DNA of 64,000 nt from a virus (IMGVR_UViG_3300022871_000011:1-64000); one strand, 5' to 3'; shown: positions 2,372 to 19,024, counted from the stretch's first letter. The notes: generated by a model from the sequence alone, not told the origin. Translations and numbers: made by a program.

Positions 2372-3766
2372 ATGACAGTTGAATTAAATACACTAGCTCC
2401 TTTAAAATGGGTCGCAGATTATAGCGGTGCAGCTCCTACAATAGATAGTACCGACGATGCACTTGTAGGGGACTTTGCAGTAGATACCTCTAACGATGCA
2501 ATATGGTATTGCAGAGACAACACAGCAGCAGCCGCTGTATGGTCTGGACTGAAACCTATATGGATTGAATCAGGCTCAGACATAAACTTTAATACAGGAA
2601 ACGTTAGTATAGGTACTGCGTTTGGTTCACCGTATGCTCAAGCTGATGATTTTGTAGTTTATGGTGCAGGAGACTGTGGTATTACTCTTATGGGTGGTAA
2701 AACCTCAGCTGATACATCTCATTTATTTTTTGGGGATATTGACGGTGCAGGGGTAGGCAGTATTACTTATACCCATTTTGCAGATGAAATGACATTTAGA
2801 GTTAATGGGTCTGAAAGCATGCGCATCGACTCAAGCGGGGATGTGGGGATTGGATACACAACTCCAAGTAATTTTTCAGCCAGTGGCGCAACTCAACTAG
2901 TAGTGGGTGGTGGTTCGGGGAATGAAGGAATTACCATCTTCAGTGGAACCACGGGGACCGGTTCTATTGCTTTTGCAGATGGAACAACAACGACCCAAGG
3001 ATATGAGGGGCTGATTACCTATAATCATAATACAAATTACATGGGCTTGTGGACTAATCATGTTGAAAGAATGAGAATCGACTCAAGCGGGGATGTGGGG
3101 ATTGGCGGGACTCCTGGCCACGCTTTAGACATTTGGGATGGTGCAATAGGATTAGTTATCGGTGCTCAAAATGCCACAAAGAACAGGACTAATTCTACAT
3201 CTAAAGTTTCGCGCATAGGGATGCCTCATTATACACTTGCAGAAGAACCCGTTGCTGTATTAAGTTGCATCTCAGGGTCGGCATCTAACATAATTAATAT
3301 AGGTGGTGCGTCTGTTTTAATGAACACTGCAACCGATATTAAATTCTATACTAGTGCTACAAATACAACGGTAACTGGAACACAAAGAATGGCCATCGCC
3401 TCAAACGGCGCAGTTAATATAGTAGGCGCATTAACTGCCGCATCCTACTCAGATAACACCCCTTTCTTTTCAGGTGATGCAATAACTGAGATTATGAAAG
3501 TCAAAGGTAAAGACGGGGAACTTGACCATAAAACTCTACCAACTTTTGCAAGGATCACCAAAACAGAAAAGGTAAAAGACAAAGACGGAAAAATTGAAAA
3601 GGATGTAGACGGAAAAGACAAGGTAAAAATCACAGAACACAGAGATTTAGGTGCTATGATTTCAATTTTAACTAAAGGTATGCAAGAGCAACAGACTTTA
3701 ATTACGGCTCAGGCGCAGACAATAAATAACCAGGACGATAGAATAAAAGCACTAGAAAGTGTATAA
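2372..3766 (+). CDS. Tail fibre protein with C-terminal intramolecular-chaperone-like (S74-type) region
   Basis: repeated MRIDSSGDVGIG beta motifs; C-terminal LTKGMQEQQ...RIKALE coiled coil. Confidence 0.8.
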   Translation: MTVELNTLAPLKWVADYSGAAPTIDSTDDALVGDFAVDTSNDAIWYCRDNTAAAAVWSGLKPIWIESGSDINFNTGNVSIGTAFGSPYAQADDFVVYGAGDCGITLMGGKTSADTSHLFFGDIDGAGVGSITYTHFADEMTFRVNGSESMRIDSSGDVGIGYTTPSNFSASGATQLVVGGGSGNEGITIFSGTTGTGSIAFADGTTTTQGYEGLITYNHNTNYMGLWTNHVERMRIDSSGDVGIGGTPGHALDIWDGAIGLVIGAQNATKNRTNSTSKVSRIGMPHYTLAEEPVAVLSCISGSASNIINIGGASVLMNTATDIKFYTSATNTTVTGTQRMAIASNGAVNIVGALTAASYSDNTPFFSGDAITEIMKVKGKDGELDHKTLPTFARITKTEKVKDKDGKIEKDVDGKDKVKITEHRDLGAMISILTKGMQEQQTLITAQAQTINNQDDRIKALESV

Positions 3767-3779
3767 CCAAAAGGAGAGC

Positions 3780-3953
3780 ATGATGGGAAAGGAAGTTAAG
3801 AGGATGTCAATCGCAACAGAGGTACTACAGGCAACGCTGAACTACATTAGCGCACAACCCTATAACCAAGTTGCTAATTTACTTAATGAGATTCAAAAGG
3901 ATGCTAAACCGATTGAAGAAGTAAAGAATAACAAGGAGAAATCAAATGAGTGA
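3780..3953 (+). CDS. Small protein, paralog of 3946-4128 (possible fibre-associated chaperone)
   Basis: RMSI...LQ...QPYNQVANLLNEIQKD aligns with RMSV...LQ...LPFSQVADVLLALQKD; AAGGAG RBS. Confidence 0.65.
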   Translation: MMGKEVKRMSIATEVLQATLNYISAQPYNQVANLLNEIQKDAKPIEEVKNNKEKSNE

Positions 3954-4128
3954 CGACAAGAAGGAAACCCCGGCCGTAGAGAAAAAACAACAACCTGTAA
4001 GAATGTCCGTGTCTCAGCCCCTATTGCAAGGCGCAATAGACATCCTTCAAACACTACCTTTTAGTCAAGTTGCTGATGTATTGTTAGCCCTTCAAAAAGA
4101 TATCAAGGTATCAACAGGGGACAAGTAG
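3946..4128 (+). CDS. Small protein, paralog of 3780-3953
   Basis: AAGGAG RBS; similarity to the upstream gene. Confidence 0.65.
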   Translation: MSDDKKETPAVEKKQQPVRMSVSQPLLQGAIDILQTLPFSQVADVLLALQKDIKVSTGDK

Positions 4129-4157
4129 AGCTATAGTGTATAAAAATAGGAGGAACT

Positions 4158-6353
4158 ATGCCTTACAAAGACATACCTAAGAAACAACCTCATTTATTTG
4201 AGGTTGAACCAGCTATCTATCAATTAGATGATGACCGTGTACAAGGGCTCCGTACAGGCGAAATTACCCAAACAGAATTCATGCGCCTAATGAAACAAGA
4301 AGACCCTTGGGAACTTAGGCAGGGTAAACTGCACCTTGTTACCGAAAAGGAGAATGAGGACCGCAAAGTAATGTTTACGAACCAGCGTAGGATGGCCCTC
4401 AAGAAAACTGGAGGGCTAACAGGCTCAGCTATCAGTGACGACCCTGCAAACTTTAAGAGGGCCTATCCAGAAGTAGCCATTGAGATCGACCGCGTAATGA
4501 GGGAGATCAAAGCTGAAGCGTGCGTAGGGTGTGCAGCCAATCAGAAGATGATACCAATCCTTGAACAGATACTTAAAGCAGAGACTCAAGGTAGAGACCT
4601 TACTATGCTTAAGAATCTAACCCCCCTTACACTCAAGAAACTGAGGGGTGGAGACATCGATGCAGAGGTAGATGTTGCACCAATAGAATATCCTCCTATG
4701 TTTACTAAGACTGTTATCCCTAAGCTACAGGAGCCTGTGGACGTGCCGGTCAAGCCCGACATTAAGAATTTTAAAAAGATCTCGAAGCTCTCCGTTACCC
4801 CGGAAGATTTCTGGGCAGCAGGACCACAGATCCTGGCAGTATATCCTGAACTGACCGAGTACTGGGAGCAGGTAATGACCAAGGCCAATAAAGCCAGCTG
4901 CAGTAGCTGTGTCCGTAAGCGGTATAAGAAACGAATACTAGATAGAATTAAAGCACTTGACCCAGAGGGTAGAGAGGTAGCTCCTCTGACAGCTGTTCTG
5001 GGTACCCGTTTTGTACGACTACTGACTAAGAGCGAAAAGAAAGGCACCGAGGCAATGGCGGCACCCATGCCACCATCTGATACGGGTAATGGCCCCCGCC
5101 CAAGCTGTGTTGATTGTGCTCGTAAGCATGTAGCCCAGGCTATTGTACTCCTAGGAGAGGCCCAGCTAGGCTACCCCGATCATAAGTGGTTGGCAGTAGG
5201 GCACTTAGCCGAAGCATCCGAAGAGATGCTCGGGGACTACCCTGAGATAGCAGCCGACATACGTACAGCTAGGCTCCTTGTAATGGAAGAAGACGTATCC
5301 ACCCCTGATTTGATGGATTTATTCCCCTTATTAGGCGCTGAAGTGTCCCTCTTCGCTCCCGGGGGCTCGCGTGCGCCTCAAAAAAAACTCATTTTAAAGA
5401 ACCACCAAAGCCCTGGCGACATAGTTATGATGACAGCGGCGGTCCGGGACTTTAAAAAGGCCTTTCCTGCCTACGATATAGATGTCAGAACCTCAGCGGA
5501 CCCTTTGTGGGAGAATAACCCCTATTTAACACCTCTTGACGAGTCTGATCCTGATGTGGAGAGCATTGTTATGAATTATCCGCTCATACACAGAAGCAAT
5601 GAAGGCCCACATCACTTCATAAACGGGTTTCGTATGTTCCTTGAAGACCATTTAGGGCTTAAAATACCCGCCGGACCCCTCAAAGGCGATATACACATCT
5701 CAGATGAGGAGAAAGGTTGGATATCACAAATAGAACAGGAAACAGGAAAGGATCAGCCTTACTGGGTTATTGCGGCCGGTGGCAAAACAGATTATACATG
5801 CAAGTTATGGGATCCCTCACGCTATCAGGCCGTCGTTGATGCTATGAACAAGATGGGCATACTATGTGTACAGATAGGTGAAGATGACGAGGGGCATATA
5901 CAACAACCCCTTGAAAATGTAGTTAATTTAATAGGCAAGACCGACCTTAGAGAGTTTATAAGGGTTATATATCATTCTTCAGGGGTCATATGCCCTGTAA
6001 CGTTCCCTATGGTAGCAGCTATAGCGGTGGAGGCTAGACCCGACAGATGCCTCAAACACCGCCCGTGTGTCGTTATTGCAGGAGGTAGAGAACCGGCACA
6101 ATGGCAGGCCTATCCTGGCCATGCATTCCTACACACTCAGGGAAAGCTATCATGTTGTGACCAGGGTGGGTGCTGGAGAAGTCGTATTATACCCCTCGGC
6201 GACGGTGACTCCAAGGATAGTGATCTTTGTGAGAATCCTGTGAAGCTTCGTAATGGTAATACTATACCTAAATGTCTCGATATGATCACACCGAAGGAGG
6301 TACTCCGACATGTCAAAGAATACACAGCCGGTTTTAAGGCCAGTCAAGGTTGA
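4158..6353 (+). CDS. Glycosyltransferase family 9 (ADP-heptose:LPS heptosyltransferase-like) with ~400-aa N-terminal CxxC-containing extension
   Basis: SPGDIVMMTAAVRDFK, LWENNPY, KLWDPSRYQAVVD, NLIGKTDLREFIRVI are GT9-type motifs. Confidence 0.8.
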   Translation: MPYKDIPKKQPHLFEVEPAIYQLDDDRVQGLRTGEITQTEFMRLMKQEDPWELRQGKLHLVTEKENEDRKVMFTNQRRMALKKTGGLTGSAISDDPANFKRAYPEVAIEIDRVMREIKAEACVGCAANQKMIPILEQILKAETQGRDLTMLKNLTPLTLKKLRGGDIDAEVDVAPIEYPPMFTKTVIPKLQEPVDVPVKPDIKNFKKISKLSVTPEDFWAAGPQILAVYPELTEYWEQVMTKANKASCSSCVRKRYKKRILDRIKALDPEGREVAPLTAVLGTRFVRLLTKSEKKGTEAMAAPMPPSDTGNGPRPSCVDCARKHVAQAIVLLGEAQLGYPDHKWLAVGHLAEASEEMLGDYPEIAADIRTARLLVMEEDVSTPDLMDLFPLLGAEVSLFAPGGSRAPQKKLILKNHQSPGDIVMMTAAVRDFKKAFPAYDIDVRTSADPLWENNPYLTPLDESDPDVESIVMNYPLIHRSNEGPHHFINGFRMFLEDHLGLKIPAGPLKGDIHISDEEKGWISQIEQETGKDQPYWVIAAGGKTDYTCKLWDPSRYQAVVDAMNKMGILCVQIGEDDEGHIQQPLENVVNLIGKTDLREFIRVIYHSSGVICPVTFPMVAAIAVEARPDRCLKHRPCVVIAGGREPAQWQAYPGHAFLHTQGKLSCCDQGGCWRSRIIPLGDGDSKDSDLCENPVKLRNGNTIPKCLDMITPKEVLRHVKEYTAGFKASQG

Positions 6354-14873: not shown

Positions 14874-15181
14874 AGCTCGCGCTTGTCAGGGTCTTCGTTC
14901 TTTTTAAGACGTTGTTCCTTGGCCTCGCCGACGCGCTCAATAATGTCCTTAACGATGTCCATCATGACTTTGGCATCTTTTACCTTTTCTAGCTTGGAAG
15001 CTATTACAACAAGCACCTCTGCTCGTTCGATGGCTTCCTCGATAGAAAGGATCTTGGTTTCGACTGGGTTACCAATCTCTTTAATACCGTCTTTACGTTT
15101 GCCTGTGTCATAGACCTCCAGGACAACATTACCGTTCTTGGCTGTTACGCCCTTAATGTTCGACATGTGTTGGGATTCCAT
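14870..15181 (-). CDS. Hypothetical protein downstream of terminase
   Basis: GGAGG RBS; directly follows terL. Confidence 0.7.
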   Translation of the reverse strand: MESQHMSNIKGVTAKNGNVVLEVYDTGKRKDGIKEIGNPVETKILSIEEAIERAEVLVVIASKLEKVKDAKVMMDIVKDIIERVGEAKEQRLKKNEDPDKREL

Positions 15182-15193
15182 AATATCCTCCGG

Positions 15194-18100
15194 TTACCAA
15201 ACTACTTTCTCTGGATCAGTCGGGGCCGCTAAGGCCAGCTGCTGTTCCGTTATTGTAAACTTATCCTTGACAGTGTTCATGTCAGGGTACGATTGACGTG
15301 TGTGCCATATGGCCGAACACGCATAATTTAAAGCATGGGCAAAGTCATCACTCTTTTTGGGAGCTTTGCCTATAAGATACATAATACCGCCTCTGGGTAA
15401 TTCCCGGGGCATCTCTACAAGGTTAAGTAGATCATCCAGTACTATCTTGGATTCGTCATCATAGAACGGCAGTGAGATCTTATGTGCCCTTAACATAGCG
15501 CACATAACAGCCAAGCTCCGTGCTTTATCGATGCTGTAAGAGAACCGGGTACCGTTACCTGTAGGTGGGTTATAGGTTATAACATCTTTGTTGGTGCTGC
15601 TAACGTATGTGTAAGGTATGATCTGATGATCGGGCAAACCTGCCTGTCTCATCAAGGATTCCCTAACATAACCTGCGCCACCATAATCATGTGCCATATA
15701 GACACACTGAAACTTGCGGAACTGATCCATGATATACATGGACTCTTCTTCAGGGCTCATACCCATGGGGAGCCTCTCAGAGTATAAGTTATCTACTACA
15801 TCTGTACCGTTACGGAAACCCACGACGGCTAATGCAGTGTAGCTCTCTGATAAGTCTCCGCCACCACTCCAGTCAACACCCATAACATAACCGGAATACT
15901 GGTTGCGCAACTTAATTGTAGCAGCCATATCATTCTTATGTTTACCGGCCGCTGAGATTAAGTCGGCTTGTGATAATAGTTTAACGTTTTCATCGCAAGG
16001 CACCCCCAGTACCTCGTTATAGAATTTAGCCTTAGAGTAGGACCCGGGACCTTCCATTTTACCGAGTAGGGCCTGCCACTTAGCTTTAATCCCATAATGA
16101 AGAGGATGTGTTACCTGGCAGAAATGATAACCAGCATGCGTGGCAGCCAAGTCAGGCCGTGCATGTACATAGTAACCCCGGCGCCCATCTAAGGTGCCCC
16201 CGCATTTGGCACATATAATAGTTTTCTTACCCAGCATCTTAATCAGGTCCTGCTCAATCGATGCTATATTCTTTTTACGACAGTGACTACAAGGGATACA
16301 CCACTCCGCCATACTACTGTCGTTCCACACCACTGCAAGTGTTCCATCCGACGTCTTAGGCGTACCGGTATATTGCTGGAAACCGAAGTACCTATTTGCA
16401 CTTGTTGTTTCGAATAAAATTGGGAGGAAATCGTAGTCAATGTCTTGGCAATTAAGGCTTTGCACATTATTTGCAAGAATATAATTATGCGTTCCGACCA
16501 CCTCTATATCGTAAACAGGCTGCACAGCTGTAACCTCTATTTTAGATATTCTGCTAAGGGTTACGCCTGCTCCAGCTTCCTTGCACGGTAACGCCGCTGG
16601 TTGTCCCTCAACTTTAACTTCTGACACACCTCGGCCTGGCAGACGGTGCTTGTCTTCTTGTAGAGGGGTTCCCCGCAGTACCTGCAATGGCCTGTTGGCC
16701 CTTTCGCCAGTATTTTGCGCTTGTGCCGGGCATTCGTTATAAGGCGCTGTCTTTCTTTCTCTGCAGGGTCGTTGGCAAGCCTCTCTTTCCTGCGTTGGTC
16801 CGACCGGGCATTCTGTTCTTTTACTTTGTCGGGGTTGTTCTTGCGCCACTCTTTTGTGTGCACTGCCTCTGCTTTGTGGTCCCTGCGTGCGTTGGCCTTG
16901 TCCAGCCGATCTCTGTAGCGTCCCTGGTCCTTCTTTAATTTTGCATAATACCGTTTGCGCTCCGACTGTAGACTTGCTTCGTATGCCGGGTCTCCCTTTA
17001 GCGATGTCCGCTTGTCGCGTTTGCGTTCGTTTACAAGGTCCCTGTTGCGTTCCAGGTAGGCTGCTGCATGCTTTCTTCCCATTGCCCTGCTGTACACTAG
17101 GTCCTTGTAGTAACAGCGCCTGGCTATTATCCTGGATTGTTCCGGGTTGGCACGGCGCCACTCCGCGGACTTCTCCATTATGTATTCTTTGTTTTCTTCG
17201 TAATATTCGTGTTTGACTATGTGATCGTACTCCTCTTTGCATGCACCCTCGCATACCCATGCTCCCTTGGTTAGCTCTGCCCCGCACATTAAGCAACGGT
17301 GTTCTATACGGTTTATCTTGTAAGCCATCGGTGCAGGCATGTAAGGTGCTATCAACGGTATCAGGGTTATTGTGCCCTTCGCAGTTATGTATAGCAGAGG
17401 GTACGTGAAGACTTCCCCGTCCCTCGTTTTGTTCACCATATACACTTTGCTCTCCACACCATACTTGGCCATTAGCCATGTAGATAGCAGGTCCACTTCC
17501 TCCGGGCTGAACCCGTGAGTCGATATGCTCACAGTCCTGCGTCCGCTGTCCAGACATCCGTCGTCCCCTATCCACCACGCTATCCCCTCGGGGGTCAGCT
17601 GTGAGAGCCACTCCGTGTTCACTAGCTTGTGATGCCCGTCCGGGCATGTTAGGGTGAAGATATAGTGAAACACTGAGAGGGCCTGCGTCCTCCAGACACT
17701 CGACCATTCTCCGTAACCCCCGTTCTTGATCTTGTAAGGTGCTCTGGTGGCGTACTCTGCTAACAGGGCGTACTTCTCCAGGTTGTATTGGTGCTGGCAC
17801 CACCCGTGATTTGAGCGGTAACATACAGTCTGCTTGGCTGCGCTGCTTACCTGCATTGAGCCATCCCCTAGCATCGTACCCAGTAACAGCTGCTTCTGTG
17901 ATGCCGTCAAAGTCTCCGGTTTGTTTTGCATACTCATAATTTATTACCTCCGATAATCGTACAGGGCCTATAGATGTGGGGAATGAATGATCACCCGTAC
18001 ACTCTATTGTTTCACCTGTCTCTAGTGTAACTTTAAAACACAGCCGCTCCCCGTGATAGGAAGCATCCTTTGCTGCGATACTATTTAACACTGTACCATC

Positions 18101-18700
18101 ATTGTTGAAAGAATGCAAGTACTCACCTGCTTTAACTTCACAGACCTTTTTGGATGAAAAAGTCACTCCGTCATAACTCGTTGATATTAAAGTATTTGCG
18201 CTGAGGCTCTCGTCAATTGCGACACATGAGATTGAGGATATGCCCCTCACACGATCGGGATTTAGGTAGCAATATTCTAGGAATATCATAGACCCAGAAT
18301 GGAACTCTTTCGTGTAGAATTTACCCACCTCCTGGTCCGACATCATATCGCTCTTTATGAGAGAGTGTTTAAGAAGAGGCCTCAGGATGGTAGCATTATA
18401 GCGGGCCAACTGGTCAGCACGGGGCTCGATTATAAGTGTATGGAAGCCTTTGTAGTAGTGGGCCCTTAAAATAGCCTGTGCACTTAGGCTCAGACTTTTT
18501 CCTACTTGCCGTGAGCAGCAATATACAACAGATCTAGGTTGTTCAAATTCGAAGAATGGTGCCATCTGATAATGGAGGTCAGTTGACATATGTTCTTCAC
18601 CTATTTTGAACACAGGTAAGAGAGGTGCAAAGGATGTAACCCACCCCTCATCTACAGCGCGGAAGTATTCCGCAATGAATTGATTCGTATTAAGACCCAA
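15194..18700 (-). CDS. terL: Terminase large subunit (gpA-like) with a 586-aa intein; mature protein ~582 aa
   Basis: Walker A SRQVGKS, Walker B VAIDE|CQD split by the intein, TGTPK, CxxC/CxxC, FYNEVLG, nuclease MGVDWSGG and DDFAHALNY; TTG start with GGAGG. Confidence 0.9.
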   Translation of the reverse strand: MGLNTNQFIAEYFRAVDEGWVTSFAPLLPVFKIGEEHMSTDLHYQMAPFFEFEQPRSVVYCCSRQVGKSLSLSAQAILRAHYYKGFHTLIIEPRADQLARYNATILRPLLKHSLIKSDMMSDQEVGKFYTKEFHSGSMIFLEYCYLNPDRVRGISSISCVAIDESLSANTLISTSYDGVTFSSKKVCEVKAGEYLHSFNNDGTVLNSIAAKDASYHGERLCFKVTLETGETIECTGDHSFPTSIGPVRLSEVINYEYAKQTGDFDGITEAAVTGYDARGWLNAGKQRSQADCMLPLKSRVVPAPIQPGEVRPVSRVRHQSTLQDQERGLRRMVECLEDAGPLSVSLYLHPNMPGRASQASEHGVALTADPRGDSVVDRGRRMSGQRTQDCEHIDSRVQPGGSGPAIYMANGQVWCGEQSVYGEQNEGRGSLHVPSAIHNCEGHNNPDTVDSTLHACTDGLQDKPYRTPLLNVRGRANQGSMGMRGCMQRGVRSHSQTRILRRKQRIHNGEVRGVAPCQPGTIQDNSQALLLQGPSVQQGNGKKACSSLPGTQQGPCKRTQTRQADIAKGRPGIRSKSTVGAQTVLCKIKEGPGTLQRSAGQGQRTQGPQSRGSAHKRVAQEQPRQSKRTECPVGPTQEREACQRPCRERKTAPYNECPAQAQNTGERANRPLQVLRGTPLQEDKHRLPGRGVSEVKVEGQPAALPCKEAGAGVTLSRISKIEVTAVQPVYDIEVVGTHNYILANNVQSLNCQDIDYDFLPILFETTSANRYFGFQQYTGTPKTSDGTLAVVWNDSSMAEWCIPCSHCRKKNIASIEQDLIKMLGKKTIICAKCGGTLDGRRGYYVHARPDLAATHAGYHFCQVTHPLHYGIKAKWQALLGKMEGPGSYSKAKFYNEVLGVPCDENVKLLSQADLISAAGKHKNDMAATIKLRNQYSGYVMGVDWSGGGDLSESYTALAVVGFRNGTDVVDNLYSERLPMGMSPEEESMYIMDQFRKFQCVYMAHDYGGAGYVRESLMRQAGLPDHQIIPYTYVSSTNKDVITYNPPTGNGTRFSYSIDKARSLAVMCAMLRAHKISLPFYDDESKIVLDDLLNLVEMPRELPRGGIMYLIGKAPKKSDDFAHALNYACSAIWHTRQSYPDMNTVKDKFTITEQQLALAAPTDPEKVVW
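16451..18208 (-). mobile_element. Intein in terL, inserted directly after Walker B
   Basis: starts SLSANTLI (block A), IECTGDHSF (block B TxxH), VYDIEVVGTHNYILANNVQSLN/C (blocks F/G); removal restores AIDECQD. Confidence 0.9.
16561..17937 (-). CDS. LAGLIDADG homing endonuclease nested out-of-frame inside the terL intein
   Basis: LLLGTMLGDGSM and GIAWWIGDDG motifs, ISTHGFS; C-terminal Cys4 fingers and basic helices; own SD (GGAGGTAATAAATT-ATG). Confidence 0.9.
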   Translation of the reverse strand: MSMQNKPETLTASQKQLLLGTMLGDGSMQVSSAAKQTVCYRSNHGWCQHQYNLEKYALLAEYATRAPYKIKNGGYGEWSSVWRTQALSVFHYIFTLTCPDGHHKLVNTEWLSQLTPEGIAWWIGDDGCLDSGRRTVSISTHGFSPEEVDLLSTWLMAKYGVESKVYMVNKTRDGEVFTYPLLYITAKGTITLIPLIAPYMPAPMAYKINRIEHRCLMCGAELTKGAWVCEGACKEEYDHIVKHEYYEENKEYIMEKSAEWRRANPEQSRIIARRCYYKDLVYSRAMGRKHAAAYLERNRDLVNERKRDKRTSLKGDPAYEASLQSERKRYYAKLKKDQGRYRDRLDKANARRDHKAEAVHTKEWRKNNPDKVKEQNARSDQRRKERLANDPAEKERQRLITNARHKRKILAKGPTGHCRYCGEPLYKKTSTVCQAEVCQKLKLRDNQRRYRARKLEQA

Positions 18701-18796
18701 ACGTTCCTCCTAAGTGCTTCGACAGCACACAAACTTATTATTTAATTTATTCGCATAAAGATGTTTTGTAAAGTATATTAGCATAAAATACAGGAA

Positions 18797-19024
18797 TTGC
18801 AAATGCCGAGTCAGAGCTCAAGAGAAGCACTCAAGCGTAAAAAGCTTGATTTTAATGAATTGAATAATGATTCTGCCGGTCCTTATAAGACCCGCGGACT
18901 CATTTCCCATGACCGACCGTTTGAGGAGACGGTAGCACTACGACCTATTGACACAGTCAAGGATCGTGGGGCGACTTTACCTCTGGACGATGGCGAGTGG
19001 AACGATTCATCTTCCAGCTCATGA
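18797..19024 (+). CDS. Hypothetical protein, divergent from terL
   Basis: ORF with AGGA upstream; probable start ATG at 18803. Confidence 0.45.
   Translation: MQMPSQSSREALKRKKLDFNELNNDSAGPYKTRGLISHDRPFEETVALRPIDTVKDRGATLPLDDGEWNDSSSSS

Follow-up and report, generated by a model that had tools for sequence, protein, structure and literature searches.

The stretch of DNA considered here, which we call the window, is the first 64 kb (64,000 nucleotides) of a 77,273-bp virus contig from IMG/VR (IMGVR_UViG_3300022871_000011; CheckV completeness 41%), and our subject is its gene for the large terminase, terL, which is interrupted by an intein and which carries, beneath that intein and in a different reading frame, a gene for a LAGLIDADG homing endonuclease. 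All of the features concerned lie on the minus strand, and their coordinates are those of the window:

15194..18700, minus strand: terL precursor open reading frame (ORF), 1168 codons with a TTG start; a gpA-like large terminase with one intein interrupting it.
18209..18700, minus strand: N-extein, TerL aa 1-164; Walker A GKS at aa 67-69; ends at Walker B CVAIDE, aa 159-164.
16451..18208, minus strand: intein, TerL aa 165-750, 586 aa; Ser1, block B TGDH and an end at ...SLN, followed by Cys+1 (C751).
[quoted passage not shown]
17946..17951, minus strand: Shine-Dalgarno (SD)-like GGAGGT, 8 nt upstream of the endonuclease ATG at 17937, as read from the sequence.
16561..17937, minus strand: gene for the homing endonuclease, at +1 relative to the terL frame, 458 aa and a closing TAA; assigned with Pfam, phmmer, AF2 and Foldseek.
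16562..17908, minus strand: passenger segment, i.e. the terL-frame reading of the endonuclease gene, ~450-460 aa; stop-free and rich in G/R/Q/P/S.
16451..16561, minus strand: C-terminal splicing region, intein aa 550-586, VYDIEVVGTHNY...NVQSLN; AF2 pLDDT 78-91, with strands predicted to complete the HINT fold.
15194..16450, minus strand: C-extein, TerL aa 751-1168 plus the stop codon; starts CQDIDYDF; the nuclease/translocase part.

An earlier note on this DNA had described an unbroken 1168-codon TerL frame and, 763 nt past its start, a nested, complete 458-aa LAGLIDADG gene with its own GGAGGT, start and stop; it had placed the intein at 16451..18208, divided into ~90, ~460 and 37 aa with a non-globular middle, predicted a spliced TerL of ~582 aa, remarked on a higher GC content and on the lack of T-ending endonuclease codons before AA, AG or GA, and proposed that selection keeps both frames open. 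All of the ORF features are present in the sequence, and the remaining points hold up against the analyses that follow. The 763-nt offset puts the endonuclease in the +1 frame, between intein aa ~91 and 550. Its frame is closed by a TAA two codons 5' of the ATG and ends with a TAA at the C-splicing domain, such that the C-splicing region begins at the final base of the endonuclease stop codon. The GC content of the overlap is 0.50-0.57, compared with 0.42-0.47 in the flanks. The hidden Markov model searches that the earlier note had called for in both frames gave a match of TerL to phrog_675 (E 1.8e-41), with Pfam GpA_ATPase as a weak match, and of the nested ORF to LAGLIDADG_2 (E 1.9e-21; 77.1 bits against a cut-off of 25). 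TerL has the Walker A/B ATPase, the C-terminal nuclease and the known-family homology expected of a large terminase, and PF05876 is found in many of its homologues. Its gene is one unbroken ORF of 1168 codons; a fractured gene, in which the host is split into two ORFs with one intein half each, is not what is seen here.

The limits of the intein come from comparison with alleles that lack it. A search limited to shorter proteins gave 107 TerL homologues, most of them 540-630 aa long, and the nearest intein-less TerL (P0012, 583 aa) is 81% identical to the window protein over 416 aa of the C-extein. Aligned with six intein-less alleles of 579-584 aa (54-76% identity), the window TerL shows a single insertion, aa 165-750, and no other gap on either side, in exact agreement with the limits and the three-part division that had been proposed. 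The insertion lies between the Walker B residues D163-E164 and C751-Q-D; alleles lacking it run on at once as DE-[A/C/S/L]QD (here and below, a hyphen marks the junction), and G67, K68, D163 and E164 are invariant in this alignment. The predicted spliced TerL would thus be 582 aa long with a DE-CQD junction, a length that fits the 574-598 aa of intein-less alleles. The splicing residues Ser165, T235-G-D-H238 (intein T71-x-x-H74), Asn750 and Cys751 are present in the sequence and alignments, and blocks F and G align with those of relatives whose host gene is also terL.

An AF2 model of the intein, built on a 12-sequence alignment, is confident at both ends (pLDDT 78-93 for aa 1-100 and 550-586) and mostly at ~31-45 in the middle, where one block reaches 89 and there is almost no secondary structure; this is the segment that had been called non-globular. 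Its composition is unusual (G 11.5%, R 10.2%, Q 9.8%, F 0.2%, W 0.4%). VIA-align of the model gave the NpuDnaB intein (4o1r; Z 17.3, root-mean-square deviation 1.7 A, 132 aa), gp41-1 (6riz; Z 16.1) and the Spirulina DnaX mini-intein (Z 14.4), and the canonical intein structures 1dq3 and 1jva were also among the fold matches. By this model, the two ends of the intein would come together as one whole HINT domain, with the loop between them disordered.

In the endonuclease frame, this DNA encodes a very different protein. AF2 returned a mean pLDDT of 84.3 (against ~33 for the terL-frame reading), phmmer linked the protein to 6x1j and I-SceI (E 2.5e-7 to 3e-6), and Foldseek with the N-terminal 210 aa matched I-WcaI (6x1j; E 2.2e-14, TM 0.74) and I-SceI (5a0m; E 7e-14, TM 0.75). 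The core, aa 8-210, is I-SceI/I-WcaI-like, with two LAGLIDADG motifs in one chain, LLLGTMLGDG (D25) and AWWIGDDG (D125/D126), and then a CxxC...CxxxC zinc ribbon; the remaining ~250 aa (aa 211-458) comprise zinc ribbons and a long basic helical tail within which the second zinc ribbon lies. D25, D125, D126 and four zinc-ribbon cysteines are invariant across 11 homologues. Conservation between the window and relatives in terL tells the same story, with 80-257 bits for the endonuclease frame and 20-63 bits for the terL frame. The endonuclease frame, rather than the terL frame, is the conserved and foldable protein in the overlap, and the family match and confident fold agree with the complete gene that had been described.

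What, then, keeps the terL frame open beneath this gene? There are 0 stops in 460 terL-frame codons across the overlap, and the third frame of the same strand has 35. Permuting synonymous codons within the endonuclease gene gave 14.4 ± 2.9 terL-frame stops with a minimum of 3, none of the 20,000 permutations having 0 or 1, and redrawing the codons from the usage of the window's other long ORFs gave 42.0 ± 4.9 with a minimum of 26; this is the shuffling check that the earlier note had proposed, with many stops expected and none observed. At the codon level, T stands at the third position in 0 of the 143 endonuclease codons that precede AA, AG or GA codons and in 47 of 315 elsewhere (Fisher p 1.4e-9 among codons having a T-ending synonym); in the other ORFs of the window the frequency before AA, AG or GA is 35%. 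Two simpler causes were considered. Avoidance of TpA or of other dinucleotides is ruled out as the source of this rule since T is used at the third position before AC or AT codons (7/52), and it is also used before GC, GT and GG codons. A generally low stop content owing to the A-rich coding strand is ruled out by the 35 stops of the third frame. A stop-free terL frame arising by chance is excluded; the frame is held open by a strict rule of codon choice in the endonuclease gene, and the stop counts, the permutations and the third-position rule together mean that both overlapping frames are kept open by selection.

These data also bear on two readings in which the endonuclease would be an ordinary in-frame domain. 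The contig is a metagenome assembly, so two compensating indel errors might have displaced such a domain. An arbitrary alternative frame would hold 14-42 stops where 0 are observed, and the same +1 offset recurs in 26 other TerL loci from independent assemblies. The codon rule is an evolved signature, and two assembly indels are therefore ruled out; we regard the artefact as effectively refuted. Alternatively, ribosomes could enter and leave the +1 frame by programmed frameshifting and so yield a canonical bifunctional intein at the protein level, as the two frames share a strand and overlap at the boundaries of the splicing domains. Reading through the endonuclease frame would leave 460 stop-free terL codons unselected, the endonuclease frame is bounded by the TAA two codons before its ATG and by the TAA at the C-splicing domain, and the ATG is preceded by an SD. 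A search for in-frame nuclease fusions among longer proteins found none, which is weak evidence. We give frameshifting very little credence.

As a separate observation on this stretch, the coding strand at 16687..17216 has a great deal of A and very little T (AT skew reaching -0.63), and three antisense ORFs of 67-120 aa lie on the plus strand of the window there, opposite the basic tail of the nuclease gene. In our reading these ORFs are not genes but a consequence of the base composition.

The layout is not peculiar to the window. A single-protein scan of viral contigs gave no relative, but pattern scans with the endonuclease alignment did, recovering 97 loci, 17 viral and 80 metagenomic, with some contigs in both collections. 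In line with the dual-open homologues that the earlier note had wanted sought, the endonuclease ORF lies wholly within a longer ORF of the same strand, in another frame and with zero host stops, at 87 of the 97. The remaining third frame at these nested loci has 2-42 stops, and in each of their 73 distinct endonuclease sequences the permutation expectation is 1-27 stops. The host is a homologue of the window's TerL in 27 loci (C-extein 24-47% identical, endonuclease at +1), DnaX in 25 (at +2) and a superfamily 2 (SF2) ResIII/Helicase_C helicase in 33 (at +2). The position of the intein, Walker B/motif II, is common to the three groups, with the interruption at DE: the junctions read DE-S...[N/Q]-CQD in the TerL class, with one subgroup 4 residues upstream, IDE-CLTGDS...VHN-CHML in the DnaX class and DE-C...VHN-C[H/Q] in the helicase class. 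The endonuclease tree groups by host class (DnaX clade 99, helicase clade 97 in the Shimodaira-Hasegawa-like approximate likelihood ratio test, SH-aLRT). The DnaX loci were recovered directly with the window endonuclease as query, their nuclease being ~30% identical to it. The tcggaggt context of the internal start is also found in relative L005, and L002 and L023 have tagaggaaat/taggagaaat.

Several individual relatives deserve mention in their own right. Among TerL-class loci, the C-terminal intein residue is Gln rather than Asn in L010 (LQ-C), L030 (GQ-C) and L034 (PQ-C), and Thr is aligned as the first intein residue in L021. The TerL-class host ORF of L023 (837..5357) is 1506 aa long, with 682 aa ahead of the nuclease gene compared with ~250 in the others, and the match of its N-extein to the window is broken into two pieces, suggesting a second insertion upstream, possibly another intein. 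Relative P0002 ends ...EKVTLS, where an in-frame C-junction may be suspected. L033, on a 1.6-kb contig, has a TerL-type look with stops in the host frame; its C-intein and extein are also frame-broken, and we leave it uninterpreted. In the helicase class, L042, L050 and L077 (ORFs of 1330-1406 aa) have two inteins each, the one at motif II with an out-of-frame LAGLIDADG_2 and the other, elsewhere, a canonical one with an in-frame LAGLIDADG_3/Hom_end. Among GenBank phages, megablast of terL gave no match, and tblastn of the nuclease matched nothing other than one uncultured phage and Xanthomonas phage FoX3, where the match falls beneath a helicase gene. FoX3 is the only cultured phage in that collection with a relative of the window nuclease; the match (MT161383.1, 27492..28097) lies under a 'putative DNA helicase' ('head morphogenesis' in the RefSeq copy), and the nested gene is seemingly unannotated. 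The GenBank phage collection holds no cultured-phage example in TerL; the TerL class described here comes from metagenomic and viral contigs alone.

Is the nested gene of the window still an active one? An inactive relic, with selection on the terL frame only and a non-homing, large-looped mini-intein as the result, would resemble two of the relatives: in L066 and L032 the nuclease ORF is shortened (127 and 160 aa) beneath a host frame that has stayed open, as if their endonuclease were being lost on the way to a mini-intein. In the window, the 458-codon ORF is intact with its SD and ATG, it keeps the two LAGLIDADG motifs along with the invariant Asp and Cys, and the fold is confident (pLDDT 84.3), whereas an unselected copy would be expected to gather stops in its own frame. 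The closest TerL relative has no intein, which suggests recent gain or loss: the window TerL is sister to the intein-less P0012 in the C-extein tree (99% support). A relic is unlikely on these grounds, although of the alternatives considered it is the one to which we assign the most weight. More broadly in that tree, at least 10 gains or losses are required to place the 14 alleles with an intein among the 86 without (shuffled mean 13.3), in a sample biased by the fact that the intein-bearing and intein-less sets each came from a different query; such a scatter would fit homing or frequent loss.

The 10 of the 97 loci without the nested layout include both split and free-standing states. L012 (IMGVR_UViG_3300027896_004357, 2746..5416) is a true fractured SF2 helicase gene, split at DE-CH, with three ORFs on its own contig:

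2746..3678: helicase N-extein with the N-terminal intein half (IntN).
3731..4603: LAGLIDADG gene standing on its own; its product has a zinc-ribbon region at the N terminus and is related to the window nuclease.
4604..5416: C-terminal intein half (IntC) with the C-extein, MKIV...NVFDIEVEKNHNFF...LVHN-CHH.

L031 and L085 are free-standing copies. The endonuclease genes of L012, L031 and L085 have 23-42 stops in both alternative frames, so an open second frame is not built into the gene family and is confined to copies crossed by an essential host frame. The earlier note had offered the layout either as an intermediate between bifunctional and split inteins or as a distinct selfish-element architecture. 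The link to split inteins gains from L012, where a related nuclease lies between true split halves; novelty of the layout is not upheld, as it has already been published (see below).

L085 is also where removal at the RNA level should be weighed. Introns are the typical home of genes for I-SceI-like LAGLIDADG_2 enzymes, and L085 has the look of an intron-borne or free-standing copy, so the insert of the window might be a group I or group II intron with a homing endonuclease gene. An Rfam scan of 15000..19000 gave no family at E<=1 that would supply a ribozyme core flanking the nuclease ORF; the host frame is open and under selection, and intein blocks A/B and F/G, for which a HINT fold is predicted, stand at the two ends of the insert. 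An intron is thus as poor a candidate as the assembly artefact. Apart from this question, the L085 stretch (3848..5416) has two different LAGLIDADG genes in tandem (256 aa, I-SceI-like, and 155 aa) with few other ORFs around, and could be an intron-rich or non-coding RNA gene region.

Our favored interpretation, in which we have considerable confidence, is that the terL of this uncultured phage contains a non-canonical, contiguous class-1-type intein whose endonuclease is a separate, fully overlapping +1 gene rather than an in-frame domain. From this arrangement we infer splicing, separate translation of the nuclease, and homing. Ribosomes would translate terL straight through to give a 1168-aa precursor, in which a HINT domain would assemble around the ~450-aa unstructured passenger and excise itself in cis via Ser165, Asn750 and Cys751, leaving the 582-aa TerL with its DE-CQD junction. 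Other ribosomes would begin at the internal SD/ATG (17937) and make the I-SceI-like enzyme on its own, 458 aa long and complete with its zinc-ribbon extensions and its basic ones for DNA binding. In a co-infection, this enzyme would cut an intein-less terL at the site encoding Walker B, and repair would copy the intein together with its nested gene. Endonuclease codon changes that create terL-frame stops would be purged by selection because TerL is essential.

Five points weigh against this interpretation. The penultimate intein residue is Leu instead of the usual His, although the position also varies among relatives. The Pfam Intein_splicing match is weak (E 6e-5; 23.3 bits against a gathering score of 35.8), and in relatives it is strong. 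A promoter scan just upstream of the internal start found no convincing sigma-70-like promoter, the site counts not being clearly above those of shuffles. The nearest endonuclease identity is only 41-45%, with no close relative of the window copy found. Finally, the interpretation does not account for how a 1.4-kb gene first came by a second frame free of stops. One speculative possibility is that the gene invaded when the surrounding DNA was GC-rich, a condition under which alternative frames are often open; the raised GC content of the overlap is consistent with such a beginning.

A broader proposal can be made about the family as a whole, one that we hold tentatively and would put somewhat short of an even chance. 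The nucleases may belong to an old I-SceI-like clade that lives almost wholly overprinted in inteins at the Walker B DE-C site of three P-loop nucleoside triphosphatase genes, those for phage TerL, DnaX and the SF2 helicase, with a fixed frame offset and an endonuclease subclade for each host; the overprinted contiguous state would then be the stable ancestral one, and one mutation to a stop, or an escape, would have given rise to splits of the L012 type and to free-standing copies. If this is true, the layout is common rather than rare, and there is a direction for the origin of split inteins.

An understanding of such loci has several uses. For example, gene callers give either an 1168-aa 'terminase' with an odd low-complexity middle or a nuclease that breaks the terminase, and the two-frame layout mends both annotations. 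The overlap is also a very clean natural one, 1.4 kb on the same strand under one simple rule (no T at the third position before AA, AG or GA), and is therefore useful for studying the cost of dual coding. That 87 of 97 relatives share the arrangement, in three host genes and at the same catalytic motif, suggests that it is a regular lifestyle for one nuclease clade, and the split and free-standing relatives within this one family make the link between contiguous and split inteins testable. Additionally, terminase-targeting I-SceI-like enzymes and inteins that tolerate large loops may interest tool builders.

How does the terL intein of the window compare with systems already described? In canonical bifunctional LAGLIDADG inteins such as PI-SceI and PI-PfuI, the nuclease is an in-frame domain of the Pfam LAGLIDADG_3 or Hom_end type. 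The window's intein resembles them in having its predicted HINT domain interrupted by a LAGLIDADG nuclease at the same loop; it differs in that the nuclease is of the I-SceI type (LAGLIDADG_2) and is probably made separately.

The closest known system is the DnaX intein, and with it goes the novelty that had been hoped for. A homing endonuclease lying out of frame within a contiguous intein has been known since 1998, from the Synechocystis DnaX intein (Gorbalenya 1998, as cited in both Gogarten-lab preprints), and non-canonical layouts are also treated in those two preprints themselves (bioRxiv 10.1101/2025.01.02.630785; bioRxiv 10.64898/2026.09.14.751524). In the cyanobacterial dnaX intein, a +2-frame LAGLIDADG enzyme like 6X1J, a disordered in-frame reading and SD motifs have been described (Phillips, DeSimone & Gogarten 2026, bioRxiv 10.64898/2026.09.14.751524), along with frame-specific ratios of nonsynonymous to synonymous substitution (dN/dS), and the layout was termed 'a rarity'. 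The DnaX loci found here are this published system. Like it, the window has a contiguous intein at the Walker B DE-C site of a P-loop nucleoside triphosphatase, and a homologous I-WcaI/I-SceI-like nuclease (~30% identity) on the same strand, in another frame and with its own SD; 6X1J is the best structural match for both nucleases, and the in-frame reading is disordered in both. Unlike it, the host here is a phage terminase instead of a bacterial dnaX, and the endonuclease is at +1 instead of +2, which makes for a different set of forbidden codon pairs. The window intein also starts with Ser, not Cys, and is without the penultimate His, and its nuclease has a ~250-aa tail of zinc ribbons and basic helices.

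Among phages, 63 non-canonical actinophage inteins have been reported with TerL among their hosts (Gosselin, Arsenault & Gogarten 2025, bioRxiv 10.1101/2025.01.02.630785), their types being antisense LAGLIDADG, antisense Vsr-like and same-strand, frame-3 endonuclease VII-like; a free-standing endonuclease gene invading an intein was the proposed origin. These are like the window in coming from phages, many in TerL, with the nuclease outside the extein frame and the intein frame open. They are unlike it in that their hosts are cultured actinophages and that a same-strand, out-of-frame LAGLIDADG in TerL is not among their types. We did not find that combination elsewhere in the Gogarten-lab papers or in the GenBank phage collection, nor did we find in those papers the +1 offset or a single nuclease clade with this layout in three host genes together with split and free-standing members. 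In phage methylase genes, ShiLan-type insertions conceal an out-of-frame gene for an HNH endonuclease (Arsenault, Gosselin & Gogarten 2025, PMC11855218); they share with the window a stop-free host frame over an insertion that encodes a nuclease in another frame, but they are without splicing domains and are thought to be retained as a loop, whereas here intein blocks and a predicted HINT domain flank the overlap. In fractured genes, the gene for the homing endonuclease stands free between the halves of a split intein (Dassa et al. 2009, as cited), and the window likewise has a separate endonuclease gene positioned between N- and C-splicing domains. Its host ORF, unlike theirs, is unsplit: a stop-free passenger, translated with them, links the two splicing halves, and splicing would therefore be in cis. 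Set beside these systems, the terL insertion of the window is a new example, not a new kind, of an intein whose endonuclease is written in a second frame.

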